A DNA stretch of 64,000 nucleotides from Nanobdellota archaeon (lineage in GTDB: Archaea > Nanobdellota > Nanobdellia > Pacearchaeales > GW2011-AR1). The stretch is taken from positions 132,314-196,313 of the forward strand of contig JANLHN010000003.1 of assembly GCA_024654505.1 (NCBI GenBank), written 5' to 3'. The notes below the pieces were generated by a model that saw only the letters and a list, made by a program, of their open reading frames with translations, did not search any database and was not told the origin of the DNA. The position numbers were made by a program, and so were the translations under genes. This document shows, one piece after another, positions 9,166 through 37,032 of this stretch (position 1 is its first letter; each line of letters opens with the position of its first letter).

Positions 9166-9930
9166 ATGGATAGTAAGGAATGGGACGGTATTTCTAAAGA
9201 TTATTACACAGAGATACTCAGTCCTATAAGGGACAGCCAGAATAGTCCTTTGCTTAATGATTTAAAAATTATTAATCACAAAGAGAAACTATCTGTTGCT
9301 GACTTAGGTTGTGGACTTGGAGAGCTGTCACCTTTTTTGTCTAAATATTTTAATAGGGTTTTTTGTATGGACTTTTCACCCAAAATGATAGAAAGGGCAA
9401 AAAAGAGTAATAAAGACCTTTCTAATGTGGAATTTATTGTTCAAGATATATCTGACCTTAGAGAGTTCTATAATTCTTTTGATGTTATAACTTCCATTAA
9501 TTCAATACTTACACCAGACCTTCATAAAGTAGATAAGATATTTTTAGAGATATATAACTCTTTGAAACAAAAAGGGAAGTTTTTTTGCGTGTTACCTTCT
9601 ATGGAGGTTTTTTCTTATGAATCACTTCTTTTAGCACATGAGGAGATTGATAAAAAACATGAGAAAAAAATAGAAGACGTAAGAAAAATAGTGAGAAGTT
9701 TTATTAAAAGGAAGGAACATGATTTTTTACTTGGAATAACAAATTTTGAGGGAAAACAAAAAGCATATTATCGTTTTGAGATATTATGGCGACTAAATAA
9801 GGCTGGATTTAAAAATATAATAATCAAAAAGATTTTTTATCCTTGGGAAGAATTTGAGAAGGCTGGACAAAAAGCATTCCCTGATGAAGAAATGCTTCCT
9901 TGGGATTGGTATGTGATTGCGGATAAGTGA
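9166..9930 (+). CDS. Class I SAM-dependent methyltransferase
   Basis: The SAM-binding motif is VADLGCGLGELS. The stop codon TGA at 9928-9930 lies inside a tRNA 3'-end-mimic repeat. Confidence 0.6.
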   Translation: MDSKEWDGISKDYYTEILSPIRDSQNSPLLNDLKIINHKEKLSVADLGCGLGELSPFLSKYFNRVFCMDFSPKMIERAKKSNKDLSNVEFIVQDISDLREFYNSFDVITSINSILTPDLHKVDKIFLEIYNSLKQKGKFFCVLPSMEVFSYESLLLAHEEIDKKHEKKIEDVRKIVRSFIKRKEHDFLLGITNFEGKQKAYYRFEILWRLNKAGFKNIIIKKIFYPWEEFEKAGQKAFPDEEMLPWDWYVIADK

Positions 9931-9972
9931 TACGCCCACACCCTGCTCAAAGATACGCCCACACCAGGAATC
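9929..9972. repeat. Direct repeats mimicking a tRNA 3' end (GATACGCCCACACC...)
   Basis: The plus strand reads gatacgcccacaccctgctcaaa + gatacgcccacaccaggaatc. Each copy is the reverse complement of a ...GGGTGTGGGCG tRNA 3' acceptor end. Confidence 0.6.
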
Positions 9973-10058
9973 TGTTCGCATTTCACTCTTCTCTCAAAAT
10001 ATTTGTAGTAGTTCGAGAAGAGCAAAGATGCTCAAACCTGGACCCAGGTTCGAAGATA

Positions 10059-10139
10059 CGCCCATACCAGGAATCGAACCTGGGTACCCCGAAGGGTCAA
10101 GATTTCCAATCTTGTGCAATACCATTATGCGATGTGGGC
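10059..10139 (-). tRNA. tRNA-Ser (anticodon GGA)
   Basis: An 81-nt cloverleaf with acceptor GCCCACA/TATGGGC (one C-A mismatch). The anticodon stem is CAAGA/TCTTG with loop TTGGAAA. A long variable arm ACCCTTCGGGGTAC is present and the T arm is CCAGG-TTCGATT-CCTGG. Discriminator is G and no CCA is encoded. Confidence 0.7.
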
Positions 10140-10175
10140 TTATTATTACAGAATAAAATTAGTTTTTAAGGTTTT

Positions 10176-10435
10176 ACGCCCACACCCTGCTCAAAGATAC
10201 GCCCACACCCTGCTCAAAGATACGCCCACACCCTGCTCGCCTTTAGGTCTGCAATAATCTTTTCATTTGTTCAGACCTAAAAGCTCGGCACCCATTTGGT
10301 GTACCTCTGTTGAGGCAAATCGAAGGTTCGATGTCCGGGAAAACGCCCACACCCTGCTCGCCTTTAGGTCTGCAATAATCTTTTCATTTGTTCAGACCTA
10401 AAAGCTCGGAATCGAAGGTTCGATGTCCGGGAAAA
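10176..10435. repeat. Array of tRNA 3'-end mimics: 23-nt tandem units plus two 92/122-nt hairpin-containing units
   Basis: The 23-nt unit acgcccacaccctgctcaaagat is repeated 2.7 times (10176-10238). Two longer units follow, each starting acgcccacaccctgctcgcc and containing the inverted repeat TAGGTCTG...CAGACCTA. The proximal unit (10222-10342) carries a 30-nt insertion. Confidence 0.65.
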
Positions 10436-10516
10436 CGCCCACACCCGGAATCGAACCGGGATGCCAGTGAAGGCCCGGTTTTCTAGACCGGTGCAATACC
10501 ATTATACGATGTGGGC
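10436..10516 (-). tRNA. Class II tRNA (long variable arm), nominal anticodon AGA (Ser-like; atypical A34)
   Basis: An 81-nt cloverleaf with acceptor GCCCACA/TGTGGGC. The anticodon stem is CCGGT/ACCGG with loop CTAGAAA. The variable arm has a GCC..GGC stem and the T arm is CCCGG-TTCGATT-CCGGG. The first 25 nt are near-identical to tRNA-Ser(GGA). Confidence 0.5.
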
Positions 10517-10559
10517 TTTGCTTATAATTGATGAAGAAAATATGTTTTTAAAAGTTGGC

Positions 10560-11333
10560 TTAGGACAATTCTAACAAAACGGGGCAATGGTCGCTTCCGT
10601 GAACATCATTGAGAATATCTGTTTTCTTTATCTTCTTTCGAAGCTCGGGACTTATTCCAAAATAATCTAGACGCCAGCCGACATTTCTTGCTCTTGCATT
10701 CATTCTATAGGACCACCAAGAGTATTTTACTTTGTCTGGATGGCTGTGTCGGAAGGTGTCTATGAAACCTATGTCAAGAAGGTCTTGGAATCTTTCTCTT
10801 TCCTTATCTGTGAATCCTGGGCTTCCGGGGTTTGTTGCTGTAGTTTTATTTGAGTCTGGTCTTGCAATGTCTATTTCATGGTGAGCGACGTTTAAGTCTC
10901 CACAAAAGATTACAGGTTTATCTTTTTCTAATTTTTTTAGATGTTTTTTGAATGCAATGTCCCATTCATTGTATCTAAAATTTAATCTTGACAAATCTCC
11001 TTTTGAGTTTGGAGTATAAACATTTACTAAATAAAAACTTTCGAATTCGAGGGTTTGTACTCTGCCTTCCTCGTCGAGGATTCCTATTCCATTTTGGATA
11101 CTGATAGGTTTTATCTTTGAGAATGTTGCGGTCCCTGCATATCCTTTTCTTTCAGCAGGGTTCCAGAAATGGTGTGCGAAATCATCTGCCAATTCCATAT
11201 CAACTTGTTCGGGGTGTGCCTTTATTTCCTGTAAGCATAGGATGTCTGGGTCTTCTTTTTCAACAAATTTTACGAATCCTTTTTTAATCACCGCGCGAAT
11301 CCCATTTACATTCCAAGATATTAATTTCACCAT
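10560..11333 (-). CDS. xth: Exodeoxyribonuclease III / AP endonuclease (Xth family)
   Basis: The N-terminus MVKLISWNVNGIRA and the length (257 aa) fit the ExoIII/EEP fold. Confidence 0.8.
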   Translation of the reverse strand: MVKLISWNVNGIRAVIKKGFVKFVEKEDPDILCLQEIKAHPEQVDMELADDFAHHFWNPAERKGYAGTATFSKIKPISIQNGIGILDEEGRVQTLEFESFYLVNVYTPNSKGDLSRLNFRYNEWDIAFKKHLKKLEKDKPVIFCGDLNVAHHEIDIARPDSNKTTATNPGSPGFTDKERERFQDLLDIGFIDTFRHSHPDKVKYSWWSYRMNARARNVGWRLDYFGISPELRKKIKKTDILNDVHGSDHCPVLLELS

Positions 11334-11370
11334 TAAAGTATATTGGGAGAAGTGTTTATAAGATTAAGGA

Positions 11371-11733
11371 TTAAAGTTTAAACATTTTATTTAGGTCTTC
11401 TACACTTGGGATTGTGGGGTCTGTTCTTTCTTCCAAAGCCCTCATGTCTTGTGTTTCTAATGGCTCAAGACCTCTAAGAGAGTCACATTCGTCTTCATCT
11501 GAATATCTAGGTGCCCAATTTATTAATTGGTCTCCTCTTTTTCTTACCTTTCCTACTTCCCCACAGAATCTATCAAAATCGGGATGATTGTAAGAATCCG
11601 CCCTAACATCTTCTTCTTTTTCTCCAACATCTAAAGCAATATATTGAAAATGGCCTCCAGGATGCCTTGCGACATAAATTTTCTTTGACATGTTGTGTTC
11701 AGAGAAAGAGGTGTTTAAAAAACTAATCCCCAC
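11371..11733 (-). CDS. Hypothetical protein (downstream of rps10)
   Basis: ORF only. The start may be the internal MSKKIY at 11691. No motif was recognised. Confidence 0.35.
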   Translation of the reverse strand: MGISFLNTSFSEHNMSKKIYVARHPGGHFQYIALDVGEKEEDVRADSYNHPDFDRFCGEVGKVRKRGDQLINWAPRYSDEDECDSLRGLEPLETQDMRALEERTDPTIPSVEDLNKMFKL

Positions 11734-11784
11734 AGGACTGATAAAAGTTGTATTGTTATAAATGTCATGTTTTTAGGGGTGTAT

Positions 11785-12099
11785 TTAGTCTACCATCTCT
11801 ATTTTGATCTTGACTGTTCTTGGAATACTCACCCTCATTATACTGTGAAGAATTTTATCATTTGCTGGGAGGTCAATGATTCTCTTATGGATTCTCATTT
11901 CGAATCGATCAAAAGTTGCTGTACCATTTCCACAAGGAGATTTTCTTGTTGTTACTTTTAACTTTTTTGTTGGAAGAGGAATTGGGCCAGAAATGGGCAT
12001 GCCGGCGCTGCTAGCAATAAATTTTATCCGATCAATAACTTCGTTTAACTTATCGATCTCTACACTTTGCAGCTTTATCCGAACTGAACTCATATTCAT
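11785..12099 (-). CDS. rps10: 30S ribosomal protein S10 (uS10)
   Basis: The sequence IRIKL...GPIPLPTKKLKVTTRKSP...FDRFEMRIHKRIIDL is a near-canonical archaeal uS10. Confidence 0.85.
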   Translation of the reverse strand: MNMSSVRIKLQSVEIDKLNEVIDRIKFIASSAGMPISGPIPLPTKKLKVTTRKSPCGNGTATFDRFEMRIHKRIIDLPANDKILHSIMRVSIPRTVKIKIEMVD

Positions 12100-12140
12100 T
12101 TGACAAAAATTACACTTTTAAACCTTCCTGTCTATATTTC

Positions 12141-12851
12141 TTGATGGAGAGGAAGACTTACATTTTAGTCATTTTAGTAATTGTAACAGGAGTTCTTTAT
12201 TATATGGCGACAGAAGAAGTTGTAGTCCAAAAATCTGTTAAAATTGTTAGGGTTATCGACGGAGACACCGTTGAAACTAGTGGTGGTGAGAAGATTAGGT
12301 TAAAGGGAATAAATACTCCTGAAAAGGGAATGTCTTATTATCTCGAAGCTAAGAATCATTTAGAAAATTTGGTTTTGAATAAATCTGTGGAGCTTGAGGA
12401 TTATGGTTTGGACCAATATGGTCGAATTCTTGGTCATATCTATTTTGGAGAGGTTTATGTTAATGGGGAACTTGTCAAAAATGGGCTTGCTTTTTCTTAT
12501 TACTATGGAGAGGATAAACATTCTGAAGAGCTTTTGGATTTGGAAGATGTTGCTAGGGAGAAGGAGACAGGATTATGGAAAAAATCTCCTGATTTTGGTT
12601 GTTTAGAATTGATAGAACTAAGATATAAAGAGCCTGGTGAAAGATGTACTAATGGAGAGTTGTTGAGAATAAGAAATTCTTGTGATAAGAGCTTTAATTT
12701 TACTATAAAAGATGATGCAACACATATTTATAAAGAATTTATAGAAAAAAAAGGTTTTTTTGAAAAGACTTTCTCGTGTATATTTAATGATGATGGAGAT
12801 TCTTTATATGTTATAGATGATAAAGGTTTATTAATATTTTATCGTTACTGA
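12141..12851 (+). CDS. Membrane-anchored thermonuclease (SNase-like) with Cys-rich C-terminal extension
   Basis: An N-terminal TM helix anchors the protein. The staphylococcal-nuclease signature is VIDGDTVE...IRLKGINTPE. A roughly 80-aa tail carries four Cys. Confidence 0.65.
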   Translation: MMERKTYILVILVIVTGVLYYMATEEVVVQKSVKIVRVIDGDTVETSGGEKIRLKGINTPEKGMSYYLEAKNHLENLVLNKSVELEDYGLDQYGRILGHIYFGEVYVNGELVKNGLAFSYYYGEDKHSEELLDLEDVAREKETGLWKKSPDFGCLELIELRYKEPGERCTNGELLRIRNSCDKSFNFTIKDDATHIYKEFIEKKGFFEKTFSCIFNDDGDSLYVIDDKGLLIFYRY

Positions 12852-12858
12852 TTTTAAG

Positions 12859-13251
12859 ATGACTATTTTGAGTACTTATGTAGTTGATAAATTGAAAAGC
12901 ATCCTTTATCAGGAGTATTGGCTTAGAAACCAGCACAAATATGGTGGTCAGACTTCAGTGGAATATTGGCGTGATTGTGATAGGGCAATATCAGAGCCTT
13001 ATAGGAAGAAATTGGAGGCATTGGGGCGAGGAGAGTCAGTTAGGGAACTTGAAGATGGCTACGTTGAGGGGGTAAGGGCTGAGGTTAAAAGAGAAGGAGC
13101 TAGAAGATCTAAGTTAGAAGAAGAAGTTGAAGAAAGGAAAATTAGAAGTCATATTGAGCCGGAAAAACCGAGGCTTGAAGGGGGTTCTCGAGGTGGGCTG
13201 AGAAAGGTGTGGAACCTAATAACAAAGAAGAAGAAACAACCTCTCTATTAA
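12859..13251 (+). CDS. Hypothetical charged (Arg/Glu-rich) protein
   Basis: ORF only (130 aa). Confidence 0.35.
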   Translation: MTILSTYVVDKLKSILYQEYWLRNQHKYGGQTSVEYWRDCDRAISEPYRKKLEALGRGESVRELEDGYVEGVRAEVKREGARRSKLEEEVEERKIRSHIEPEKPRLEGGSRGGLRKVWNLITKKKKQPLY

Positions 13252-13294
13252 ATAAAAAGGGTAGGTTTTAATATATCTTTTTGGTGAGTATTAT

Positions 13295-13765
13295 ATGATA
13301 AACTTATTTAATTTTTCAGTTTTTGTGGGGATAATTTTTGAACCATTAGCTATGGTAATAATTGGTCTAGCGATTGCACTTTATTTGTTTGTGAGAAAAA
13401 TGAATAGAAGAGGATATTTCTTTGCTTCTATTTTAATTATTGCAGGAATTTTGATAAAGTTGTTTAAAGAATTTATTCAGAAGGCTAGACCATTGGATAT
13501 GCTTATTCAAGAGACAGGTTATGCTTTTCCAAGTGGACATGCAACAATTTCTGTTGTTTTCTTTGGCTCTCTTGCTTACCTAATATCTAGGAATAAATCT
13601 CAGAAGATTAAAGTTTTGTCTTCGGTGATTGCAGGAATTCTTGTTTTAATTACGGGATTTACAAGATTATATCTTGGAGTCCATGATGTCTATGATGTTC
13701 TCGGAGGATTTGTCCTTGGAGGGATAGTCTTAGTTATAGGGATTTTGTGGTTTGGGAAGGAGTAA
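13295..13765 (+). CDS. PAP2-family phosphatase (membrane)
   Basis: Three PAP2 motifs are present: KARPLD, PSGH, and LYLGVHDVYD. The protein has multiple TM helices. Confidence 0.65.
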   Translation: MINLFNFSVFVGIIFEPLAMVIIGLAIALYLFVRKMNRRGYFFASILIIAGILIKLFKEFIQKARPLDMLIQETGYAFPSGHATISVVFFGSLAYLISRNKSQKIKVLSSVIAGILVLITGFTRLYLGVHDVYDVLGGFVLGGIVLVIGILWFGKE

Positions 13766-14498
13766 GAAATTTTTCTAATTTTTTAAGATATCTTTCTAGC
13801 TTCTGGATATATGCCCTTTTCTCTTCTAGGCTTTTATGTGGTGTTTTGAAGTATAGCTTAAAAGTATCATGAACTATGTGGTCTTTATCTTTGATTGATT
13901 TGGTTAGTTTTTTCCAGCTATGTGGTGGATTTTTGCCCAAGACTTTTTGTTCATTTTCTATAAGCCAGAATATTTGTTTTAAAATTTCATGAATGTGGAA
14001 CTTGCCTTTTTTATAATCTGGTAAGAACCATGAGTTGAAGATCCCTATCATGTTTTTTAGTCTTTTTTCATGGCTTCCTTTAGGTAATGATTCAACGTTC
14101 AATGGTTCTCCGTAGATTAATTTGTAATTTTTCAAATGTTCAATCACTCTACTTGGAGCAGTTCCGGTATTTTTTCTTATCTTTAATCTTTTATTATTCT
14201 TTAACTCCCATAAAGAAAGACTGCCTAATTGAATCGGGGGTGAAAATTTCTTTCTATACTCTTTTTCTAGTTTCTTAATCTTCCCCACATATTTAGACCT
14301 TTTTAGCATGGTTGTCAAATCCACATCGCTATATTTGTTCATTTCACGACGAACAAAACTTCCTTTTAGGTAGATGGCAATAATTTCTTCTTGAGGGATA
14401 TTTTTGAGAATAATCTTTCTTGCAGATTTAACAGACTTTATTGCTTGTTTTTCTAGTTTTGTAACTCTCTTCCAGTCCTTCCAAAACCCAAAGTCCAT
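13734..14498 (-). CDS. Pol-beta-superfamily nucleotidyltransferase domain protein
   Basis: The motif GSFVRREMNKYSDVDL has the GS-x(n)-D-x-D pattern of minimal nucleotidyltransferases. Confidence 0.45.
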   Translation of the reverse strand: MDFGFWKDWKRVTKLEKQAIKSVKSARKIILKNIPQEEIIAIYLKGSFVRREMNKYSDVDLTTMLKRSKYVGKIKKLEKEYRKKFSPPIQLGSLSLWELKNNKRLKIRKNTGTAPSRVIEHLKNYKLIYGEPLNVESLPKGSHEKRLKNMIGIFNSWFLPDYKKGKFHIHEILKQIFWLIENEQKVLGKNPPHSWKKLTKSIKDKDHIVHDTFKLYFKTPHKSLEEKRAYIQKLERYLKKLEKFLTPSQTTKSL

Positions 14499-18254: not shown

Positions 18255-18420
18255 AATTTAAGGCCCTTTAAAAAGCTTGTGTTTGTTGTTATTATTGAGT
18301 GATTAAATCTTCTTAAATAATCAAAGGAGTTAAACTTAAAAACTAAATCTCCAAAGAATATTTATGCCTCAATAGTATAAAGTAACATCCTAGATGTTGT
18401 ATGAATACAATTGAAGCAAA

Positions 18421-18492
18421 GCCTCAATAGTATAGTGGTTAGTACGTGGCCCTGTCGCGGCCAAGATCCGGGTTCAATCCCCGGTTGGGGCG
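18421..18492 (+). tRNA. tRNA-Asp (anticodon GUC)
   Basis: A 72-nt cloverleaf with acceptor GCCTCAA/TTGGGGC. The anticodon stem is TGGCC/GGCCA with loop CTGTCGC. The T arm is CCGGG-TTCAATC-CCCGG and the discriminator is G. Confidence 0.8.
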
Positions 18493-19038
18493 TAATACCT
18501 TTTTGACGGAATCAGGGGTTGTGTTTTCATTTAGCCTGATTCTTATCTTATTTTTTAATTGTCTTTTTTTATCTTCTTCTTTAAGAAATAGCTTACCTGC
18601 ATTAGTTAATACGATTTCTTTTTTTAAGAATCCAGAAATATGTTCTAAATAGAATAAGTTATTCATTTTTCCTCTGCCGTCAGGATCATTTATTATGGGT
18701 TTTGTTTTACTGAATATTTTATGGTATTCGTTGTTATTAACTCTGCCACCATCATTTCTTATCTTATCTAAAACAGAATATACTATGTCATCTCCCTTGG
18801 AATTTATTGTCATTGAAACCAATACTGGCACTCCCTTCCTGCTTTCTTTCGGAGAAGGATTAAGATTGACCAATCCTTTCTCATATAGACCTCTGCAATA
18901 TCTCCAAGCATTTTTAAAATCCATCTTTAGTTCTTGAGATATCTCTGAAATTGTTTTTGGTTTTTCCCAAAGTAAATTGATAATGTCTGCTTCTTTTATA
19001 GTTACTTTCTCTCCTAAGGGGTTAGTTATGTCATTCAT
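18439..19038 (-). CDS. Winged-HTH protein (putative transcriptional regulator); 3' end runs antisense through tRNA-Asp
   Basis: The N-terminal wHTH is ISEISQELKMDFKNAWRYCRGLYEKGLV. The ORF stop lies inside the tRNA gene on the other strand, so the C-terminus (…RGLNPDLGRDRATY) is uncertain. Confidence 0.4.
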   Translation of the reverse strand: MNDITNPLGEKVTIKEADIINLLWEKPKTISEISQELKMDFKNAWRYCRGLYEKGLVNLNPSPKESRKGVPVLVSMTINSKGDDIVYSVLDKIRNDGGRVNNNEYHKIFSKTKPIINDPDGRGKMNNLFYLEHISGFLKKEIVLTNAGKLFLKEEDKKRQLKNKIRIRLNENTTPDSVKKVLRPNRGLNPDLGRDRATY

Positions 19039-19111
19039 TTCGTATTTATTATGTTATTTTGAATATTTGATGACGAAGTTATTTATAAACTTATGTCAAA
19101 ATGATATCTTT

Positions 19112-19276
19112 ATGAAATCAACATTATTGCTACGAATTGACCTCAACCTAAAAGAGAAATTAAGACGCTTATCTAGAATTGAAAAGAGAAGTATGTGTGC
19201 AACTATCGGTAAGTTGGTAGAAGATTATGTTAAAGATTCTCAATTAAATATCAGGAAATCAAAAAATGCAAGATAG
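19112..19276 (+). CDS. Ribbon-helix-helix (CopG/antitoxin-like) small protein
   Basis: MKSTLLLRIDLNLKEKLRRLSRIEKRSM...IGKLVEDYV fits a beta-strand plus two helices pattern. The start is an internal ATG of ORF 18977..19276. Confidence 0.4.
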   Translation: MKSTLLLRIDLNLKEKLRRLSRIEKRSMCATIGKLVEDYVKDSQLNIRKSKNAR

Positions 19277-19674
19277 AGAAGCAAATCCTGTAATGAAAGC
19301 AATAATTGCACTATTGAGTTAAAAGAAGTTGGAAGTGGAGATCAGACTGTAGTTGGATATGATATTCAGATAGAAAGACATTCAAGAATCCTTGGTATTT
19401 TCGAGAAGAAAATGCAAGTAAGTGCAGAAGTTAATGCCGAAACAGGAGAGGTTATAAGTGAACACAAACCTTGGTGGGCATTTATAGCTACAGAACCGGC
19501 AGAATAAAACTAGTTTTTTACGAACCACTCATAATCTGGAAGTTAATACCTAACCCTTTTTAATTAACTGAAAAATAAATTGTTCACTCAGAAACGGCGG
19601 TTGGGACGTTCTACTTTAAAAGATAAATATACTGCCTTAGAAAGATTTAAATCCTTGATGACTTTTTTAGGTTT

Positions 19675-20097
19675 ATGGGATTTAAAATGAGAAATACTTC
19701 TGGCGAGTCTATTCGCCCACTTAATGATAGGATGGAAGAATCGGTTATGATGATAATGGAACATATAAATAAGACTCTAATGAAAAAAATGTTGGATGGA
19801 GTAAAATTTGGACAAATATCTTCAAAAGAAGAGCAGACTAAAATGCAGGGAATAGTAACTAGATTCATAGAAAACGTTCAATTTGTATCTAAAAGAATAA
19901 CATATCCAGAAGAAATTGCTAAAGCACTAATCAATAACGACAACAAAAATTTAGAGTACATAATGAATTTTTGGGTAGATAAAAAAGGAATAATCCTAAA
20001 AAAGTTAGATGGACCAATAGTTAAAGGTGGAGTAAATCAAGATGCAGAAGACTTTAAATTTGGCCTAAAAGGATTCTTAGACTCTATTAATAAGTAA
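19675..20097 (+). CDS. Hypothetical protein
   Basis: ORF only (140 aa). Confidence 0.4.
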   Translation: MGFKMRNTSGESIRPLNDRMEESVMMIMEHINKTLMKKMLDGVKFGQISSKEEQTKMQGIVTRFIENVQFVSKRITYPEEIAKALINNDNKNLEYIMNFWVDKKGIILKKLDGPIVKGGVNQDAEDFKFGLKGFLDSINK

Positions 20098-20224
20098 GAC
20101 ACAATAAAATATCTAAGAGAATTCTTTCCCTTAAAATGTCCTTAGGTTGTTGCGGTTGGAGTGTTGAACAATCGTAAGGTACATAAGTCTATATACTCCT
20201 TTATCCTTTAGATATTGGAGATAA

Positions 20225-20428
20225 ATGGTTATTAATAATATCAACAAGAAAGGTGTTGGCGGGTGGCTAGTTTGGGCAATTTTGTTCTTGATAATTTCAA
20301 TAATTGCTGGAATTTTTGGATTTGGATTCGTCTCAGGAGTTTCTTATACTTTAGCTAAGTGGTTGGCAATAATCTTCATAATTTTGTTTATAATCACAAT
20401 AATATCTCGTACAATAAAAAGAGCTTGA
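20225..20428 (+). CDS. Small membrane protein
   Basis: A 67-aa ORF with two TM helices. Confidence 0.35.
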   Translation: MVINNINKKGVGGWLVWAILFLIISIIAGIFGFGFVSGVSYTLAKWLAIIFIILFIITIISRTIKRA

Positions 20429-20527
20429 ATTTGATTAAATTATTCTAGGTCTATTATTTTGGTTGGTGACGTTCGGAATCTCTAATGACCAGTAACATTT
20501 AAAAGAAAGTATTTCTTAAATAATAAT

Positions 20528-20962
20528 ATGGGAAAGGGGTTGATTATTGGAGTGGTTGTTGTTTTAGTTTTGGCGGCATCAATCTTTTATGGAATAAGTT
20601 CTGGGGGAGATGATGAGGTCCCCTCTTCGGAGGACAAGGAAATTCCTTCCTTATGTTCAGAATTTAAAGAGGATGTCTGTGGATTGTTTGATTGTATGGT
20701 TAATTCTTGTTGGTGTGATGAAGGTGGTCCAGAGGCGGCCATTCTTTATGAACAATCTGGTGTCTCTTTGAGCACAGCAGGGGAGGCGGTGGATTATATT
20801 AAAAGATATGTTTCAACAAATGGTCTAGGTTATAATGTTAAGAACGCGGTTAAACTTAACAACATATTCTATAATGTCTTTTCCGAAGATAGTAATGGTG
20901 ATGAAATAGTTTACACATTATCTGTTGATGGAACAATCATCAAGACTATTTGTGGTGTTTAA
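20528..20962 (+). CDS. Secreted Cys-rich small protein
   Basis: A signal/TM segment at the N-terminus. The C/W-rich core is CSEFKEDVCGLFDCMVNSCWCDEGG. Confidence 0.4.
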   Translation: MGKGLIIGVVVVLVLAASIFYGISSGGDDEVPSSEDKEIPSLCSEFKEDVCGLFDCMVNSCWCDEGGPEAAILYEQSGVSLSTAGEAVDYIKRYVSTNGLGYNVKNAVKLNNIFYNVFSEDSNGDEIVYTLSVDGTIIKTICGV

Positions 20963-21236
20963 AATAGGTTTGTTTAATTAATAAAAATAAAAGATTTATT
21001 TTGTTTGATGGGAAGAAGCTTCGGAGGAGGTCATTGCTGTTAGAGTGTGTTATAAAACTGGATGGTTCAAGATAATTATCTGCAAGGGCCGGTTGGAAAG
21101 CTGACTACATAATAAGCCAAGATAAAGATTTGCTAAATTTAAAAGAATTTAGAGGTATGCCTATAATCAGACCAGAAGAGTTTTTAGAAATAATAAAAAA
21201 TAAAAGTATATAATATCTCTTATTTATTGACCTAAT

Positions 21237-22091
21237 ATGGAATTGGAGTATCTCCCAATGTTAGTTGAGGGAAAAGATATAACTCAGAATGAGATTCTCT
21301 TTATTTCCGACATAGAACATTTTGATCAGAAGATTAATACTTATTTATTAGATAGGATAAAAAAGGAGAGTTATAAGGCAGTTGTTTTAGTAGGAGATAT
21401 TTTATCGGGACTTGGAACATTCCATCCAGCATATAAAATCTTCCAAGAAAGCAATACGGCCTTTAATCTATTTTTTGATGTTAAGAAGCTAATGAAGAAA
21501 TATCTAAAGAAAGGTATTGAAGTGTATGATGTGGAAAGGTTTTGTGTTGGGAGTGTTGTATCTGATAACTTTTCAGAAAGCTACTCTAAAGAATTAAAAA
21601 ATTTCAAAAAATTTATAAAAAGATGTCATAAGGAGAAGATTCCAGTGGTCTTTTTTTCAGGAAATCATGATTCTCTCTTATCTCCGGGAAACGCTTATGA
21701 AACGAGGTTTATACCATTAATAGAAGAAATTCGTTCATTAAAGGGATTAATCATCCCAGGAGATTTAGAACTCATAAAGCTAGGAAAGGACCTTTACCTT
21801 ATGGGTGTTCATACTGAAGATGATGATATTAAAGAGCATGAATTCCATAAGATTAAGAACATCTTGAAAGAAATTGAAGCCATAAAAAACCCGGAAAATA
21901 TTATCTTTGTCTCTCATATTCCTGGAATTAAAAAATTTAGTAAGCTTGGGTCTCATGATATTACAAATCTAAAAAAAAGATATAAATTCAAGTATCATTA
22001 TCATGGCCATTGTAAAAATTACTATGGAGAATATGACGAGGAGGGAGTTCCAACAAAGTCAATCCATATAGAAGATGGTTTAGTTAGTTAA
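21237..22091 (+). CDS. Calcineurin-like metallophosphoesterase
   Basis: The motifs VVLVGDILSG (GD), FFSGNHD (GNHD/E), VSHIPG and GHCKNYY fit the MPP motif series. Confidence 0.55.
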   Translation: MELEYLPMLVEGKDITQNEILFISDIEHFDQKINTYLLDRIKKESYKAVVLVGDILSGLGTFHPAYKIFQESNTAFNLFFDVKKLMKKYLKKGIEVYDVERFCVGSVVSDNFSESYSKELKNFKKFIKRCHKEKIPVVFFSGNHDSLLSPGNAYETRFIPLIEEIRSLKGLIIPGDLELIKLGKDLYLMGVHTEDDDIKEHEFHKIKNILKEIEAIKNPENIIFVSHIPGIKKFSKLGSHDITNLKKRYKFKYHYHGHCKNYYGEYDEEGVPTKSIHIEDGLVS

Positions 22092-22097
22092 CTTAAA

Positions 22098-25000
22098 TTA
22101 TAATAGTTTCTTTATCTCTCGATCTAGTCTTTTTACTTCAGAATCTTCATTTTTCCACCAGTCCCTACTCCAAACTCGAAGAATGTTCCATCCGGAATTT
22201 TCCAAAATTTCTTGTCTATAAATGTCTCTTTCCTTTGCACTTTTTGATGAGTGGTACATTGCACCATCGCACTCTATCCCAACAATAAATTTTCCTTTTT
22301 GCTTTGGATGAACAACTGCAAGGTCAATCTTATATCCTTTACATCCAACTTGAGTTTTTATTTTATAGCCAATTTTAGACAGGGCATCCCTAACCTCTCC
22401 CTCAAAATCACTATCGTATGATTCAAATTCTGGCGATTCGGCATCTATTTTAAGTTCATTTAGAGAATCTAACTTTTCATCAGCCCTCTTGTAGTCTCCT
22501 TCAGAGATATACTTAGAATAGCTGAGGTAATCTCGCAAGAGTTTTGGCCCATCGAACGAACCACTATATTTCAATTCACTTGGGTCAAACGAGTTAAATA
22601 TTATTATTTTCTCTCTAGCTCTGCTTATTGCAACGTTAAGCCTATTAGGTCCATAAGGGCCGTTAAGAGGACCAAACATATATCTAAATTTCTTTGTTTT
22701 ATCGAAACCATAACTTATTGAAAAGATAATGATATCTCTTTCATCTCCCTGAACATTCTCAATATTTTTAACAAATATACCCGTATATTCATCTTGATTA
22801 TATCTTTCTCTTTCAGAATCGAGTAATTTTGCAAATAAGGGGTCCTTTGCAGCTTCTTCATCTAAAAGTTCTTCAATCAAGTCTTTTTGTTTAACATTAA
22901 AGGTTATAACTCCAAGAGTTGGCTGTTCTTTAGTTTTGAGTAACTCTTTTATCTTTTTTACAACTTCTTCAGCCTCTCGAAGGTTTATGCCCGAGTCCCA
23001 AATTCCCCTAACATTTTTGTATTCTATTGCCGTATCTTTCTTAACTTTATTTTTTGGAATAACCCTTAACGACTTATCATAGAAAGCATAGTTTGAAAAA
23101 TTAATTAATTCTTCATGGTTTGACCTATAATGGTATATAAGACGTTTTCCAGGAAGTGTTGTTTTTGCTCTTTCAAGTAAAGACTCGTTTTCTAGTAGCT
23201 GTTGTTCATCATAGTCTTCAAATTTTTCATCTTCAAATTCTTCTTGGGAAGCCATAAAAAATCTGCTTGGAGGCAACTGTTTTTCATCGCCAGCAACGAT
23301 TAAACTTTTTCCACGATTTATAGAAGGGATTGCCTTTTCAAGTCTTGTTTGTGAAGCTTCATCAAAAATAACTACATCAAAAAGATCTTTCTTTAAGGGG
23401 AATATAGATGATACTGTTTCTGGTGAACACATCCAACAAGGAAATAACTCTAAAAGACCTTCCCTATAGAATACATTGAAAAGTTCTCTAAACGTTAGTC
23501 TCTTTCTCTGTTTATTTAATTCATGAACCAGCCCTCTTAAATTATTATAATTTTTTCTTCTCCCATCATAATCATAATTTTTCCACTTTAGTTCGCTATA
23601 TTTATTCATAAAAGACTCATAGATGACTTCCGGTATAACTTCAATTTTTTTATTTATTAATTCAACTAATTTATTTTTGATTGATTGATAAGTTTCATCA
23701 GAAAAACTTCGAATTATAGGGTCATTAGATTCTGATTCATTAATCCAATGAATGAAGAAGCTATTTTCTATTGTTTTCCTCCAGATAGGGGTCATGTCAT
23801 CTCCCAAGTTTTGGCGAATACTACTATAGCATAAATTGGCAATCTTATACTCTAAGTTAGTCAACTTCTCAAGATTAGAATCAAAAAGAACAATCTCATC
23901 TAACTCCCCAAACAACTCTTTTATTTTAACAAAAATGATTGAATTCTTTTCAAAATTGATGAAGTTTTTTTCAATAGACTCTAAAAACTCTTCTTTAAAT
24001 AATAGGCGAATAAAGCTTAAAGAATCTTTTAGACTCTTAAGGGGTTTTTCCAATAAGTTCCATCTTTCAATTAGTTTTTCAAAGTCTTCAGGCGAACGAA
24101 TTTTAGAGTATTTTGATTTTAAACTCCACCATTTAGAGTCGAATATTCTCGAGAACCTATTCTTCTCTTTATCTTTTAAAAACTTAAGTTCTTCAGAGAT
24201 GTTGAATAGTTCCTCAATATTTAATTTTCTCTTAAAATTAATTAATTTTAAATCACTTTTAAATTCTTTATTATAAAAAGTCTTTTCAAGATTTTCAAAA
24301 ACTTTTATTGTATTTGCTACCTTCTCTTTAAATTCTAGCTCGTCAAATTTAGTGCTAAATCTTTTTCTAAGATAAATCGGTGAATCACTTTTTTCATATT
24401 TATAAAATTGGTTTGCAATCTTAGATATGCTCTCACTATAGGTCTTTAAATCATTAAAACTAACTTTTTCAAATAATTCACCTTTGATGTCCAAGATTGG
24501 TTTTTGTTCCTTATTAGAATGTCGGTAGAGTGAGTATAGGCTTATACCATGTTTACCTTTATCATGTATTAAACTAATTAATTTTTTTAATTCTAAAAGA
24601 CCCATATCAAAAGATTTAGCTTTTTCAAGCATCTTCTTCATATTTGGCTCTCCAGAAAAGCCATCTACCCCATCATCCTTTAGGTCGTATGCATTTAATG
24701 TAGAGGCCATCTGCTTAAAAATTTGATTTCTATCATTTTGGGAATCGTGGATGAGCAGACAGTGTTTGCTTATGCCCTTAGAAGCTAGTCTATTCTTCAC
24801 AACATCAAGTGCAGCTCTTTTTTCACAGACCAATAATATCTTTTTATCTCTTAGTAAGTTATCTGCAATAAGATTAGTAATTACTTGAGATTTTCCCGTT
24901 CCAGGAGGACCATGGATTACTAATCCTTTACCAGTTCTAGATTTGATTAAAACTTGCTCTTGACTTATATCTGGCTTAGTTATAAAATAATTATCTGCCT

Positions 25001-25856
25001 CTGGGGAATCAATTAATTTTTCATCATCAAATCTTTCTTCAAGGTCTCTTTCAGTATTTTCTCCAAGTATCAACTTAGAAGAATCAGATAAACTTTTGTC
25101 TTTTATTAGTTCATCATAATCATTATTCATTGCACTATTAAGTTGACTAAATTCTCCCAAGATAGCATAGGGTAGAAATTCTATTTTCCCAGAAAGATTT
25201 TTAGGATGCTCATCTTTAATAAGTGGTTTTAATGAATCAATCTTTGTTTTTTTAAATGTGTTAATATTTGTTTCCATGTTCAATCCCTCAAACAATTGTA
25301 CTGACCATTCAATCAACTCTTCAGACTTCAAATCCTCAATTTTTTTTAAATCTTCTAAATTTAAATTTTTATAACCCTTATTATATTTATTAAAAGCAAT
25401 AAAGAATGTCTTGTTTATTTGAACTGAAGAATCTGGAAGAGGTTTTATAGTAACTTTTCTAGTCGCCCTGTTAAAGTCTATTTGAATTGGGACAAGAAAT
25501 AAAGGTGCTCTAAAAAAAGAACCTTCAGAAAAGTTTCCCTGTATAAATGGGTAACCTAAGAAGCATTCATGATAACCTTTCTCTTTAAGTATAAACTCTA
25601 CATCTCTCTTAAGATATAGAATGTCTTTTAGAATTCTCTCTTCCTCTTTATTTTTAACGTTAATATCAATGAGGTTAGCAGATTTATTTTCAAAAAAAAG
25701 CTTGTTAACTACTTGGATTGGCTGATCACTTTCTATGTTAGATAAATCAGAAATATCAAAGGTTTTCTTTTTTATAATTCTGGAAAGTCTAATTGCTCTA
25801 TTTCTTCGACTAATATCATTTAATCTCTCCTGATACTTCTTGAGAACTTTCTCCAT
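22098..25856 (-). CDS. DUF4011 – Upf1-like SF1B helicase – DUF559 (Vsr-like endonuclease) fusion protein
   Basis: Walker A is IHGPPGTGKS and the Walker B region is VIFDEASQT...VAGDEKQLPP. Motifs YRSNHEELINFSNYAFY, GVITFNVKQ and NVQGDERDIIIFS match the Upf1/DNA2 series. The C-terminus DLAVVHPKQKGKFIVGIECDGAMYH...ILRVW matches the DUF559 nuclease fold. The roughly 300-aa N-terminal domain resembles DUF4011. Confidence 0.75.
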   Translation of the reverse strand: MEKVLKKYQERLNDISRRNRAIRLSRIIKKKTFDISDLSNIESDQPIQVVNKLFFENKSANLIDINVKNKEEERILKDILYLKRDVEFILKEKGYHECFLGYPFIQGNFSEGSFFRAPLFLVPIQIDFNRATRKVTIKPLPDSSVQINKTFFIAFNKYNKGYKNLNLEDLKKIEDLKSEELIEWSVQLFEGLNMETNINTFKKTKIDSLKPLIKDEHPKNLSGKIEFLPYAILGEFSQLNSAMNNDYDELIKDKSLSDSSKLILGENTERDLEERFDDEKLIDSPEADNYFITKPDISQEQVLIKSRTGKGLVIHGPPGTGKSQVITNLIADNLLRDKKILLVCEKRAALDVVKNRLASKGISKHCLLIHDSQNDRNQIFKQMASTLNAYDLKDDGVDGFSGEPNMKKMLEKAKSFDMGLLELKKLISLIHDKGKHGISLYSLYRHSNKEQKPILDIKGELFEKVSFNDLKTYSESISKIANQFYKYEKSDSPIYLRKRFSTKFDELEFKEKVANTIKVFENLEKTFYNKEFKSDLKLINFKRKLNIEELFNISEELKFLKDKEKNRFSRIFDSKWWSLKSKYSKIRSPEDFEKLIERWNLLEKPLKSLKDSLSFIRLLFKEEFLESIEKNFINFEKNSIIFVKIKELFGELDEIVLFDSNLEKLTNLEYKIANLCYSSIRQNLGDDMTPIWRKTIENSFFIHWINESESNDPIIRSFSDETYQSIKNKLVELINKKIEVIPEVIYESFMNKYSELKWKNYDYDGRRKNYNNLRGLVHELNKQRKRLTFRELFNVFYREGLLELFPCWMCSPETVSSIFPLKKDLFDVVIFDEASQTRLEKAIPSINRGKSLIVAGDEKQLPPSRFFMASQEEFEDEKFEDYDEQQLLENESLLERAKTTLPGKRLIYHYRSNHEELINFSNYAFYDKSLRVIPKNKVKKDTAIEYKNVRGIWDSGINLREAEEVVKKIKELLKTKEQPTLGVITFNVKQKDLIEELLDEEAAKDPLFAKLLDSERERYNQDEYTGIFVKNIENVQGDERDIIIFSISYGFDKTKKFRYMFGPLNGPYGPNRLNVAISRAREKIIIFNSFDPSELKYSGSFDGPKLLRDYLSYSKYISEGDYKRADEKLDSLNELKIDAESPEFESYDSDFEGEVRDALSKIGYKIKTQVGCKGYKIDLAVVHPKQKGKFIVGIECDGAMYHSSKSAKERDIYRQEILENSGWNILRVWSRDWWKNEDSEVKRLDREIKKLL

Positions 25857-26243
25857 TTTAATGGGAATAACCCTTTGTTTAATAAGGTTTTCTTTAGGTA
25901 TCTTAAGAAGATTAAACTAGATTACTTAACTTTGAAAATCTTAATCCCATGAAAAGGCACTATCTCAATAACACTTTTGTCTTTCAAATGATACAAAAGC
26001 TCCCAGCATTCTTTTTTTGTTATGGAAAAACCACTACATAGTCGATGAAACACAAGCGAGAAGGGAATAATGTCTTTTTTTGTTTCACTCCTTATTCTTT
26101 CTAACTTTTTGTAAACAAATACTTGTGCCCTACTTATTGTGGGTTAGTTTTGCTGGAGTTCTGAACTGGTTGAGCATATAATAAATTATGACTTCTACTT
26201 GCTCTTTAGTTAAACTTTTATACTCTTTTGTGTATTATTTATT

Positions 26244-26897
26244 ATGGATGCAAGAAATACTTTCAGGCAACATTTGATTGTGGGTATTTTTTCTTTGGGG
26301 TTGGTTTGTTTTTTTCACTATTTTCTTGATGTTTCCTGGACCGTTTCGTTTGCCAGAGTCTCTTTTATTCTTTTATTTTTAGTTTTAATTATTGGCCCAA
26401 TAATGAGATTGAAAAAACCAACGGAAAGCTCTACTCCATTTCTTACTCCGTGGAGTTGGAGGGGAGAATTAGGTATTTGGTTTACTTTAATGGCTTTGGT
26501 TCATTTTATTATTTTACTTACGGGAAGATCTCTTTCAAGTATGATAAAGTTGGGTGGAGAAGGTTATGGACTTACTAATTTACTTGGTTTGATTGCTTTA
26601 TTTTGGGCATTAATACTCACAGCCACATCTTTTGGGAAGGTGATTGTATTCTTGGGTATAGATTTATGGAAATGGCTCCATAGCTTAACTCATGTGGTAT
26701 TTTATTTAGTCTCTGGACATTTCATATATTTCCAGTTCTTCTCTACGTATGGGGGAAGGAGTCCTGATTGGTTTGGATATCTTGCTGTAGCAATGGTAAT
26801 CATAGTAGTGGTCTTGCAATTAATTGCCCTTTTATTGATGATTACAAAACATAGAGAAGAAGTTGTTCACCCAGATAAAAAATTGTTGAAGCGTTAA
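26244..26897 (+). CDS. Polytopic membrane protein, hypothetical
   Basis: A 217-aa ORF with about six TM helices. Confidence 0.45.
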   Translation: MDARNTFRQHLIVGIFSLGLVCFFHYFLDVSWTVSFARVSFILLFLVLIIGPIMRLKKPTESSTPFLTPWSWRGELGIWFTLMALVHFIILLTGRSLSSMIKLGGEGYGLTNLLGLIALFWALILTATSFGKVIVFLGIDLWKWLHSLTHVVFYLVSGHFIYFQFFSTYGGRSPDWFGYLAVAMVIIVVVLQLIALLLMITKHREEVVHPDKKLLKR

Positions 26898-33692: not shown

Positions 33693-34868
33693 ATGGGAAT
33701 TTTTGATTTTTTGAAAAAGAAAAAGATTGAAAATACGGAACCTATTATAGAAGAAGTTTCTTTTGGAGAGATTACTGGCTGGCTTGATGGGAAAGAAAAG
33801 AGAATTAAGGAGAAAGAAGAAGATAGATTTAATTCCATAGGGGAGCAAATGAATGTCTTTTTTGAAGAAATTGATAAAAAAATAGTTATTTTGGCAAATT
33901 TTGATCTTGCTGCAAAGAAAGTTACTGAAAGAGAAAGAATAATTGTTAAGCAAGGATTTGATAATTATTTAAATCAGGTTAATGTATTTATTAAGGATAT
34001 TAAAGAAGTAAAAAGAGAAAATCTAGAGGATTTTATTAAAGATATAAATAAAATTTTTTCTATTTTTCATAAGCAGTCAAATATCTTTTACCATAGGGCA
34101 AATTATCTTATTGGAGATGAATTATTGGCAGTAAAACAAACGATTCAGGGCCTTTCAAAAGATTTTGTAGAAATTTTTAAAGGAGCTCATGCCGTGTTAA
34201 GTTCCCATAAAAATCTTGATTTGATTAGAGAGAAATTGAATGAGATTGAGTCTGTAGACAGAAATATTAAGGAGACCAAATCAGAGACTAACAAGATATC
34301 GGAAAAGATTTATGGATTAAAAGAACAGGAAGGAAAAATTTTAAGGGAGATTGGAAAAATTAAAATGAGCGATGATTATATAGAAAACCTCCAAAAAGGA
34401 GAAGTTGTGAGGAGTATTAATAAAAAATTGGAGGAATCTATTTGGAAATTAAAAGAATTGATTGATTTTAAGGCCCTAAGTAATGTATTTCATTCAGATA
34501 CTAAAACCATGGAAATAATTAAGAGATACAAAGAAAATTTTAAATCTATTTTTCAAAAAACTAAGGGGAATGATTTAATATCTTTGTTAAAAGAAGCAAA
34601 GATTGATAGCAAGCAAGTAATCATGCAAATTAAAGAGATTGGTTGTCTAAAAGAAGAAATTGTAAAAATTGGAGGGGGTCTTGTGAGAGATATTGTTGAA
34701 GACTTAATGATTGAAATTAGGTTATTAAAATCCGAAGTTGAAGATTTAGAAGGAGAAAAGGAAAAGACAAGGGGGCGTTTGGTAAAAATAGAAGAAACCA
34801 GAGATGATTTGTTAAAAGAGATTGGTGAAATGGTAAAAAATCTTGAGGGGAAGATTAAATGGGAATAA
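33693..34868 (+). CDS. Coiled-coil protein, hypothetical
   Basis: A 391-aa ORF rich in K/E heptads. Confidence 0.45.
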   Translation: MGIFDFLKKKKIENTEPIIEEVSFGEITGWLDGKEKRIKEKEEDRFNSIGEQMNVFFEEIDKKIVILANFDLAAKKVTERERIIVKQGFDNYLNQVNVFIKDIKEVKRENLEDFIKDINKIFSIFHKQSNIFYHRANYLIGDELLAVKQTIQGLSKDFVEIFKGAHAVLSSHKNLDLIREKLNEIESVDRNIKETKSETNKISEKIYGLKEQEGKILREIGKIKMSDDYIENLQKGEVVRSINKKLEESIWKLKELIDFKALSNVFHSDTKTMEIIKRYKENFKSIFQKTKGNDLISLLKEAKIDSKQVIMQIKEIGCLKEEIVKIGGGLVRDIVEDLMIEIRLLKSEVEDLEGEKEKTRGRLVKIEETRDDLLKEIGEMVKNLEGKIKWE

Positions 34869-36769: not shown

Positions 36770-36887
36770 GCGTGGGTAGTATAAAGTAACAAACAAGTTG
36801 CTTCGAGAATACAACCCACAAATAAATCGCGTGGGTAGTATAAAGTAACGGCATAGCCGTTTCGAGAATACAACCCCCAAATAAATC
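36770..36887 (+). repeat. Two 59-nt-periodic pseudo-5'-end copies of tRNA-Gly (GCGTGGGTAGTATAAAGTAAC + spacer)
   Basis: Copies start at 36770 and 36829, and the real tRNA starts at 36888. In each copy the first 14 nt equal the tRNA 5' end, followed by AAAGTAAC instead of the D-loop. Confidence 0.7.
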
Positions 36888-36959: not shown

Positions 36960-37032
36960 TATTGGGGAATCGAACCCTGTGAGAGATTGGCCTCTGAGAG
37001 GTCTGCAACTTGTTGCCGAGGCCCGCGCATAT
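36960..37032 (+). repeat. 58-nt element plus duplicated tRNA-Gly 3' end (ggcccgcgcatat)
   Basis: The 13-nt direct repeat lies at 36950-36962 and 37020-37032. The intervening segment begins GGGGAATCGAACCC, the reverse complement of a T-arm, and contains the palindrome CCTCTGAGAGG. Confidence 0.6.

Follow-up and report, generated by a model that had tools for sequence, protein, structure and literature searches.

The block of genes considered here lies in a 64-kb window of the genome of a Nanobdellota archaeon (the window being the whole stretch of 64,000 nucleotides (nt) that was analysed); it begins at 18493, directly 3' of the gene for tRNA-Asp, and runs to ~26140. The window has a GC content of 33-36% and holds six tRNA genes, none with an encoded CCA. 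Besides ribosomal protein S10 and several nucleases, the genes around the block encode many hypothetical proteins, a content typical of Woesearchaeota-like DPANN genomes, and the nearest relatives of the largest block protein likewise come from Woesearchaeota-like DPANN metagenome-assembled genomes (MAGs). An original prediction, made from the letters of the DNA, had suggested a defence or mobile island at this place, and the genes on which it built are present (Table 1): a winged helix-turn-helix (wHTH) regulator, a small ribbon-helix-helix (RHH)-like protein, small membrane and probably secreted proteins, a metallophosphoesterase, and a helicase-nuclease fusion of 1252 amino acids (aa). With some reserve, we favour the view that the block is a decayed and reshuffled accessory patch at an integration-prone tRNA-Asp, which carries one probable defence gene and is no longer a mobile unit. 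The block is an ordinary kind of genomic island, and its members are of known kinds rather than a new kind.

Table 1. Features of the tRNA-Asp locus, of the pre-tRNA elements in the window, and of the loci of relatives (labels beginning with L) with which they are compared.
Feature	Position	Strand	Basis or remark
Archaeal TATA-like box CTTAAAAAC	18335-18343	+	read from sequence; ends 23 nt before 18366
Structured pre-tRNA leader of tRNA-Asp, 55 nt	18366-18420	+	covariance model, 69.6 bits
tRNA-Asp (GTC), no encoded CCA	18421-18492	+	ARAGORN; Rfam tRNA, 63.5 bits
wHTH regulator, 199 aa	18439-19038	-	Pfam HTH_5, E = 3.8e-4 (weak); AlphaFold2 (AF2); Foldseek
Putative divergent promoter/operator region, 73 nt	19039-19111		TATA-like TTTATAAAT and two GACATAA/AACATAA motifs
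RHH-like protein, 54 aa, divergent partner of the wHTH gene	19112-19276	+	PHROG
18-codon ATG open reading frame (ORF), then start-less 76-codon frame in another frame	19266-19322; 19277-19507	+	six-frame translation
Weak, degenerate attachment (att) candidate GGCGGTTGGGACGT	19596-19609	+	11/14 match to the tRNA-Asp 3' end, same strand
140-aa protein	19675-20097	+	no significant Pfam, PADLOC or NCBIfam match; best PHROG weak, E = 0.0026
DUF1328 membrane protein, 67 aa	20225-20428	+	Pfam PF07043, 4e-10; NCBIfam PRK13682 models
Cys-rich protein, 144 aa, N-terminal hydrophobic helix	20528-20962	+	read from sequence
Gene remnant, C-terminal ~65 codons of a broken ORF ending in ADYIISQDKDLLNLKEFRGMPIIRPEEFLEIIKNKSI and a stop; internal stop	21001-21213	+	six-frame translation
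Calcineurin-like metallophosphoesterase, 284 aa	21237-22091	+	Pfam, 2e-8
DUF4011 / SF1 helicase (AAA_11/AAA_12) / MTES_1575 (Vsr/DUF559-like) nuclease, 1252 aa	22098-25856	-	Pfam
73-codon frame without ATG; GTG-start 43-aa ORF at 25922-26053	25922-26140	-	
Right flank, ferric-reductase-like membrane protein	26244-26897	+	Pfam
Leaders of tRNA-Gly, tandem copies	36770-36828; 36829-36887	+	
Leaders of tRNA-Tyr and tRNA-Val, in this order	45611-45668; 54335-54387	-	
T-arm-complementary trailers, 5-15 nt downstream of the tRNA	36965-36980 (Gly); 45510-45525 (Tyr); 54240-54258 (Val); 10035-10052, 10405-10430 (Ser)		
Leaders in other MAGs	L044 5558-5612 (-); L045 7842-7896; L046 3937-3988 and 4159-4212; L047 2154-2208		
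wHTH/RHH intergenic DNA in other loci	L041 1151-1222; L042 9928-10000; L043 59-129		
Complete integrative element of a related DPANN genome	L048 1992-14278		JGI Ga0373628_0000432

The helicase-nuclease is the only part of the patch that is likely to have a function at present. Pfam lays the protein out as DUF4011 (residues 14-150), a superfamily 1 (SF1) helicase core composed of AAA_11 (two stretches, the best at 298-380) and AAA_12 (891-1087), and a C-terminal nuclease domain of the MTES_1575/DUF559 type (1151-1248). The original prediction had proposed a scan with defence profiles, and PADLOC aligns the protein to PDC-S37 in three stretches (653.5 bits, E = 2.2e-196), a profile given no curated cut-off in a series of candidate rather than validated systems, and to Hhe over residues 764-1249 (372.5 bits, E = 9.6e-112). 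Like Hhe, the single-gene antiphage system of Gao et al. (2020), and like ProA and PDC-S37, it is one polypeptide in which an SF1 helicase stands between an N-terminal DUF4011 and a C-terminal Vsr/DUF559/MTES_1575 nuclease; it has conserved catalytic motifs and is often found among other defence genes. It differs from them in its length, 1252 aa against model lengths of ~1550 for PDC-S37 and 1800-1900 for Hhe and ProA (a shortfall of ~550-650 residues relative to the latter two), in that the best aligned stretch comprises the C-terminal ~500-660 residues only, and in that its host is archaeal and the protein is known here from sequence. A literature search on PDC-S37, ProA and MTES_1575 returned nothing specific. 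Homologues of the protein number 2654 below an E value of 1e-10; ~20 DPANN proteins are 42-70% identical over their full length, and many from Bacillales are ~35% identical, also over the full length. When 28 sequences are aligned, the Walker A motif (G316-S323), DEASQ (832-836) and QGDERD (1036-1041) are invariant or nearly so, as are the nuclease residues D1178, E1195, D1197 and K1208. The enzyme looks active.

The neighbourhood of this gene was read in five DPANN loci with orthologues of 47-62% identity, and the neighbours differ each time. Three of the five lie beside type I restriction-modification (R-M) or other helicase and nuclease genes. L001 has a Csa3/CARF-HTH protein, DUF2130 and a UvrD-PDDEXK helicase-nuclease on one side of the orthologue and hsdM-hsdS-hsdR on the other; in L039 the orthologue adjoins hsdR, hsdS, hsdM, PIN, NYN, DUF2779 and a HepT/MNT pair, and in L003 a 1291-aa DEAD/MZB helicase, Fic and NOV_C. 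The remaining two, L037 and L040, hold the gene alone among housekeeping genes with tRNA genes directly flanking it (tRNA-Cys in L037; in L040, tRNA-Trp to one side with tRNA-Met and tRNA-Ser opposite). A gene that stands as a solo cassette among changing neighbours in five contexts has the appearance of an accessory defence gene, and we regard the protein as a candidate and probable intact stand-alone defence protein of the Hhe/ProA/PDC-S37 kind. In L037 a 20-nt direct repeat (19/20 identical, 9823-9842 and 13814-13833) brackets the solo Hhe-like gene (10001-13750) beside tRNA-Cys; this repeat may mark the edge of a cassette or be a chance match, the DNA being T-rich.

The best link of the block to mobile elements is the metallophosphoesterase. 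Its catalytic motifs DIEH, GD, GNHD and GH appear intact by eye when set against those of the family. The protein has 27 homologues, and in all three of the independent contexts examined (homologues 61-66% identical) the gene sits inside an integrase-bearing element that adjoins a tRNA gene. In L048/L049 (66% identity) the array consists of tRNA-Asp(GTC), a tyrosine integrase, RusA, DUF6602, two small ORFs, the phosphoesterase, a TnsA_N-like protein, a ResIII helicase, an N6/N4 methyltransferase and Rep_1. Exact 14-nt direct repeats, CTCGGCGCGGGCGT, which equal the tRNA-Asp 3' end and lie 12.3 kb apart, enclose the L048 element, and the genome that carries it is a moderately close relative (S10 72% identical). 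A similar array of integrase, Rep_1, methyltransferase, ResIII, phosphoesterase and DUF6602 stands beside tRNA-Ser and tRNA-Met in L050/L051 (61% identity), and L052/L053 (62% identity) hold an element of another make-up (resolvase, HNH, many small ORFs), the integrase of which abuts tRNA-Arg. The block in the window resembles the L048 type in lying immediately 3' of tRNA-Asp(GTC) and in sharing the phosphoesterase (66%), but it has no integrase, Rep, methyltransferase, ResIII or DUF6602 gene and no 14-nt att repeat. The helicase-nuclease and the phosphoesterase were also considered as one system; this was rejected, the two genes being convergent and never together in the five and three homologue contexts.

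At the left edge of the block the wHTH and RHH-like genes form a conserved divergent module. The AF2 model of the wHTH protein (predicted local distance difference test (pLDDT) score 77.8) places a wHTH domain at residues 14-75 and a helical domain at 85-171 and leaves residues 177-199 as a disordered tail (pLDDT <50), and its Foldseek matches are MarR-type regulators and the archaeal-virus wHTH protein PyrSV gp04. An exhaustive HMMER search of 1.84 billion representatives yielded 23 homologues, the best of them 55% identical and 184 aa long, against none by a word-indexed search. The closest homologues (171-186 aa) align to residues 1-173 only, which are encoded by 18520-19038; the last ~18 codons, antisense into tRNA-Asp, are not conserved. 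Together with the disordered tail of the model, this indicates that the overlap with tRNA-Asp is an unconserved run-on. The original prediction had the ORF read antisense through the tRNA; the overlap is real, covering 54 of the 72 nt, but the ORF stops inside the tRNA gene. An SSV-type split integrase, which an ORF entering a tRNA gene might recall, was rejected, since the homologues, whole wHTH proteins, stop short of the overlap and the model has a MarR-like fold.

The RHH-like protein matches PHROG families of Arc-like repressors at E = 4.9e-4, 0.017 and 0.04 and has no Pfam or NCBIfam match; its N-terminal beta-strand and two-helix pattern was read from sequence alone. Homologues of 50-52 aa occupy the same divergent position upstream of the wHTH homologue in L041, L042 and L043. 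Across the four loci the spacer measures 71-73 nt, and the intergenic DNA has a mean column identity of 77%, against 39-55% identity for the proteins; its GACATAA-type repeats are probably operators. The neighbours in L041-L043 include an HsdR C-terminal fragment (identified by eye from the translation), ParE/VapB with M78/DUF4411, and an IS240 DDE transposase with PDDEXK and SMC-like genes. The module is like the divergent repressor switches and the RHH (Arc/CopG/MetJ)/wHTH pairs of plasmids, viruses and toxin-antitoxin (TA) loci in that two small putative DNA-binding proteins diverge from a short conserved spacer with repeats, in variable contexts rich in mobile genetic elements. Unlike in those systems, no toxin or target gene is conserved beside the pair, and the wHTH family, a rare one with 23 representatives, adds a helical domain at the C-terminus. 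We infer that the two may form an autoregulated repressor pair of the plasmid or virus kind.

Between this module and the phosphoesterase lie small genes and broken ones. The original prediction had seen a possible frameshifted gene at 19266-19506; two pieces in different frames do exist there, and the segment 19266-19507 is plausibly a pseudogene, the only match of its start-less frame being a very weak one to Pfam PepSY (E = 0.1). The Cys-rich protein, which has no family match in Pfam, PHROG or NCBIfam, is probably secreted or membrane-anchored. The remnant at 21001-21213 matches phrog_14427 at E = 7e-5, against the C-terminal end of the profile only; a resemblance to the C-terminus of PIN-family toxins had suggested the label PIN_3, which was dropped, Pfam and NCBIfam giving no confirmation. 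The broken PepSY-like ORF and this truncated one point to decay of the patch. At the other end, the frame at 25922-26140 has no match in the same three collections and may be a gene remnant between the start of the helicase gene and the conserved right flank.

The right-flank gene is found in 33 metagenomic loci at 56-79% identity; it is well conserved in relatives, hence core-like, and marks the right edge of the patch. None of the 33 loci has block genes, but none has other genes of the window either, except for a homologue of the gene at 33693 in L008, so that the comparison of synteny proposed in the original prediction cannot discriminate between presence and absence of an island; in these relatives different tRNAs stand beside the right-flank gene. 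The left-flank protein has no relative among GTDB representatives, and a look-up of the exact helicase protein gave no contig. In L008 the ferric-reductase-like gene (2-598) and the homologue of a 391-aa protein (1411-2574) are 0.8 kb apart; in the window the corresponding genes, at 26244-26897 and 33693-34868, are separated by 6.8 kb that hold an 845-aa surface protein, DUF2062 and GATase. The difference in spacing likewise points to rearrangement or insertion close by, on the right of the block.

We propose that the patch would have originated by integration at tRNA-Asp and accumulated on its 3' side, a site used by integrase-bearing elements in related DPANN archaea. It comprises a wHTH/RHH pair with a shared, putative 73-nt operator region, resembling a repressor switch as on plasmids and viruses; two or three gene remnants; three small genes of membrane or unassigned role; a phosphoesterase whose relatives are cargo of tRNA-integrated elements; and an intact stand-alone helicase-nuclease. 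Several results weigh against this proposal. No integrase, transposase or recombinase was found among the ORFs of the block (Pfam, PHROG, NCBIfam) or among ORFs of 90 aa or more from 10.5 to 38.5 kb. Searches with 28- and 19-nt pieces of the tRNA-Asp 3' end, allowing up to three mismatches, found no second copy in the window. The genes of the block stay within ~1 standard deviation of the window mean (z-scores of -1.1 to +0.3 for GC and of -0.6 to +0.1 for GC at third codon positions (GC3)), and sliding GC shows nothing unusual there. The phosphoesterase is the only gene common to the window and the related elements (tblastn, tblastx), and its orientation relative to the tRNA is opposite to that in L048-type elements. 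The genes of the left flank are poorly conserved too, so the patch may be part of a generally fluid genome, and with one tRNA per ~11 kb, adjacency to a tRNA is by itself weak evidence and could be chance. As for the candidate defence gene, its scores with the NCBIfam models ProA (NF058533; 683.2 bits in three stretches, the best being residues 693-1251 against profile positions 1180-1706 of 1903) and Hhe (NF042953; 525.8 bits, best stretch 748-1251) lie far below the equivalog cut-offs of 1500 and 2000, which makes it a relative of Hhe and ProA rather than an equivalog, and in Pseudomonas aeruginosa a defence hotspot is flanked by a large DUF4011 gene that belongs to the conserved core (PMC10250203).

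The integrases of L048 and L050 found nothing in the whole window by tblastn (E > 0.3), and a tblastx comparison of the window with L052, the integrase of which was not used as a protein query, returned the phosphoesterase only. The search for att sites, which also included 25- and 14-nt tRNA-Asp pieces under the same mismatch limit and a blastn-short search of tRNA-Asp with its flanks (18341-18560), left a single degenerate candidate at 19596-19609. Together with tRNA-Asp it would bracket a 1.1-kb segment of wHTH, RHH and pseudogene, but chance alone should give 0.75 matches as good as this per window, and it is not significant by itself; the second att-like copy for which the original prediction proposed a search was not found. 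The 2.9 million viral contigs of IMG/VR contain no relatives of the phosphoesterase, the 140-aa and 144-aa proteins or the helicase.

The most serious rival, which we consider unlikely, holds that there is no island and that the block is an ordinary stretch of a fast-rearranging DPANN chromosome that contains a helicase-nuclease and a phosphoesterase by chance and adjoins tRNA-Asp by coincidence. The density of tRNA genes (six in 64 kb by ARAGORN), the even composition and the want of an att repeat and an integrase all suit it; so does the fact that the best relatives, with a right-flank protein of 79% identity, share no neighbour genes on either side within 10 kb, and that two of the five helicase orthologues reside among housekeeping genes. 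The shift in gene content that the original prediction saw at tRNA-Asp leaves no sign in composition, and the left flank too consists mostly of hypothetical proteins and nucleases. Such a view leaves aside that the phosphoesterase family occurs in integrase-bearing, tRNA-adjacent elements in three contexts out of three, one of them at tRNA-Asp; that the wHTH/RHH pair is found beside R-M, TA and transposase genes; that gene remnants are concentrated in the block; and that the helicase family is related to validated defence proteins. Of the defence or mobile island, then, the defence-related helicase-nuclease and the element-linked genes stand, whereas an integrase, an att repeat, a shift in composition and viral relatives are wanting.

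A second rival concerns the 1252-aa protein, which could be a housekeeping helicase-nuclease of DNA repair or RNA quality control, with an Upf1/IGHMBP2-like core and a Vsr-like nuclease, instead of a defence protein. Its SF1 core is Upf1-like and matches the IGHMBP2 family (TIGR00376), many Bacillales species have full-length homologues of ~35% identity, L037 and L040 place the gene among housekeeping genes, and the core DUF4011 gene of P. aeruginosa makes a housekeeping role possible (PMC10250203). We nevertheless judge this improbable in view of the best profile matches, which are to the antiphage models ProA, Hhe and PDC-S37, of the R-M and nuclease neighbours in three of the five archaeal loci, and of a location that differs in every genome examined, as is typical of accessory genes.

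The favoured reading as a defence protein draws on Escherichia coli, where Hhe is a single helicase-nuclease gene with an essential nuclease glutamate, E1731 (10.1101/2022.06.16.496414); its triggers are phage genes of DNA metabolism, and expression of a trigger is toxic in Hhe cells (PMC11482910). Beyond the observed gene anatomy, homology, motif conservation and contexts in relatives, an antiviral activity may be proposed by analogy with this system: the SF1 domain would react to the state of DNA metabolism of an infecting virus; cleavage of DNA by the Vsr-like PD-(D/E)xK nuclease at the C-terminus would follow and would halt virus replication at a cost to the cell.

That an intact, still mobile integrative element or provirus resides in tRNA-Asp is hardly credible and already contradicted by the evidence: its position at the 3' end of the tRNA, the repressor-like wHTH/RHH pair and a wHTH ORF entering the tRNA, which recalls att sites inside ORFs, are outweighed by the absence of integrase, replication and structural genes (Pfam, PHROGs, NCBIfam) and of a second att site, by a tail of the ORF inside the tRNA that is unconserved and predicted to be disordered, by four block genes without relatives among the viral contigs, and by the presence of broken genes.

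A finding unrelated to the island hypothesis concerns the DNA just upstream. The original prediction was right that a tRNA-Asp is encoded here, but 18366, where it let its finding begin, is the first base of a structured leader; the tRNA-Asp(GTC) gene itself, on the forward strand, begins only after that leader (ARAGORN; Rfam). The leader opens with an exact 14-nt copy of the tRNA-Asp 5' end; the conserved AAAGTAAC core, a hairpin of 7 bp and a UYRWGA segment follow, and its last part is a strand that complements the 5' copy. A 14-nt repeat of this kind at 18366 is expected 0.02 times by chance, and it had been considered as an att scar; this was rejected, the motif belonging to a leader family that recurs at other tRNAs. 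The family therefore accounts for a repeat that could otherwise be mistaken for such a scar. By alignment of six upstream regions, an element of 53-59 nt precedes four tRNA genes of the window, those for Asp, Gly (two tandem copies), Tyr and Val. In each case a copy of nt 1-14 of the tRNA that follows (exact at Asp, Gly and Val, with one mismatch at Tyr) leads to AAAG(U/G)AAC, a hairpin of 6-7 bp with a 3-nt loop, UYRWGA, the complement of the copied nt 1-13, 3-9 A/U-rich nt and the tRNA, the conserved core across the family being AAAGUAAC / hairpin / UYRWGA. A TATA-like box lies ~23 nt upstream of the leader copies, and equal spacing is seen directly before two leader-less tRNA-Ser genes; from the box before tRNA-Asp, transcription is expected to start at or near the first leader base, 18366, and not at the tRNA. 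A scan for sigma-70 promoters and terminators was uninformative for an archaeon.

The proposed two-helix structure draws support from comparison. In it 80-83% of cells are paired, against 33-45% when it is slid, and both helices contain compensatory double changes over 10-11 pairs; the observed covariation score was reached by none of 500 shuffles. A degenerate pattern finds the same architecture in four other DPANN MAGs, at tRNA genes for Gly, Tyr, Arg and Gln, where the acceptor copy matches the downstream tRNA each time, though the pattern did not demand such a match, and a covariance model built from nine leader copies recovers a tenth, untrained copy before the second tRNA-Arg of L046. 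In L044 the leader-bearing tRNA-Gly is followed 5 nt later by tRNA-Leu, so that an endonuclease making tRNA 5' ends must exist there, which favours a processed leader over a scheme free of RNase P. No Rfam family matches the leader, the viral contigs contain no match to it, tRNAs of relatives in the remaining fetched loci are without it, and a full-text literature search found no description of structured DPANN tRNA leaders.

Nanoarchaeum equitans and other archaea with leaderless, split and intron-bearing tRNAs offer the nearest comparison. As in these, the promoter is placed so that the transcript begins with tRNA 5' sequence, and the tRNA-specific complementary segment of the leader resembles the tRNA-specific trans-splicing helices that Randau et al. 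reportedly described in split tRNAs. Unlike there, the downstream tRNA body is complete, the element duplicates nt 1-14 only, and it has neither an Rfam match nor an identifiable bulge-helix-bulge; an intron model was rejected, that motif being absent on inspection and from free and constrained folds. The leader-hairpin fold is nearly isoenergetic with an alternative, intron-like fold that builds the acceptor stem from the upstream copy. We tentatively propose, with slightly less than even confidence, that these elements form a structured, tRNA-specific leader family of Woesearchaeota-like DPANN archaea, undescribed as far as we could find, in which the promoter would start transcription at the copy. 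The leaders could be a new cis-acting device for the 5' processing or folding of pre-tRNAs; alternatively, they could be a mobile, intron-like insertion that copies its target.

By eye, the 3' trailers of five of the six tRNAs in the window, tRNA-Asp being the exception, include 10-13 nt that are the reverse complement of the T-arm of the same tRNA (GGAATCGAACC-like), and such pre-tRNAs could form a hairpin between trailer and T-arm. Trailers and leaders together suggest that the pre-tRNAs of this genome form unusual structures for processing. The tRNA-Ser 3' end also occurs in extra copies, one at 9955-9968 on the reverse strand, ~90 nt downstream of tRNA-Ser(GGA), and three more in tandem 23-nt repeats (GAGCAGGGTGTGGGCGTATCTTT) at 10140-10230, between the tRNA-Ser genes and upstream of tRNA-Ser(GGA); they look more like integration or att scars than anything beside tRNA-Asp. 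A stand-alone PD-(D/E)xK/Cas4-like nuclease (PDDEXK_1 3e-31, Cas_Cas4 2e-6) is encoded at 35620-36393 on the reverse strand, just upstream of the leader-bearing tRNA-Gly. The only clearly foreign composition in the window is that of ~60890-61940, about 1 kb at 56% GC in a genome of 34% GC, with three ORFs of 81-114 aa (GC3 0.59-0.78, z +3 to +5) and no Rfam match at E<=1. This segment may represent a very small inserted element, a structured RNA of unknown kind or a chimera of the assembly.

The helicase-nuclease adds a DPANN branch of short, 1250-aa Hhe/ProA-like proteins to the candidate single-gene defences, a modest gain, and its contexts show such genes travelling as solo cassettes through reduced DPANN genomes and often coming to rest next to tRNA genes or R-M systems. 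The locus also supplies two markers of DPANN mobile elements that annotation pipelines would leave unflagged, the phosphoesterase family of tRNA-integrating elements and the divergent wHTH/RHH pair. If real and functional, the leaders bear on the maturation of tRNA 5' ends in DPANN archaea, on the annotation of tRNA genes and on the calling of att sites, and this by-product of the analysis could matter more than the block itself.

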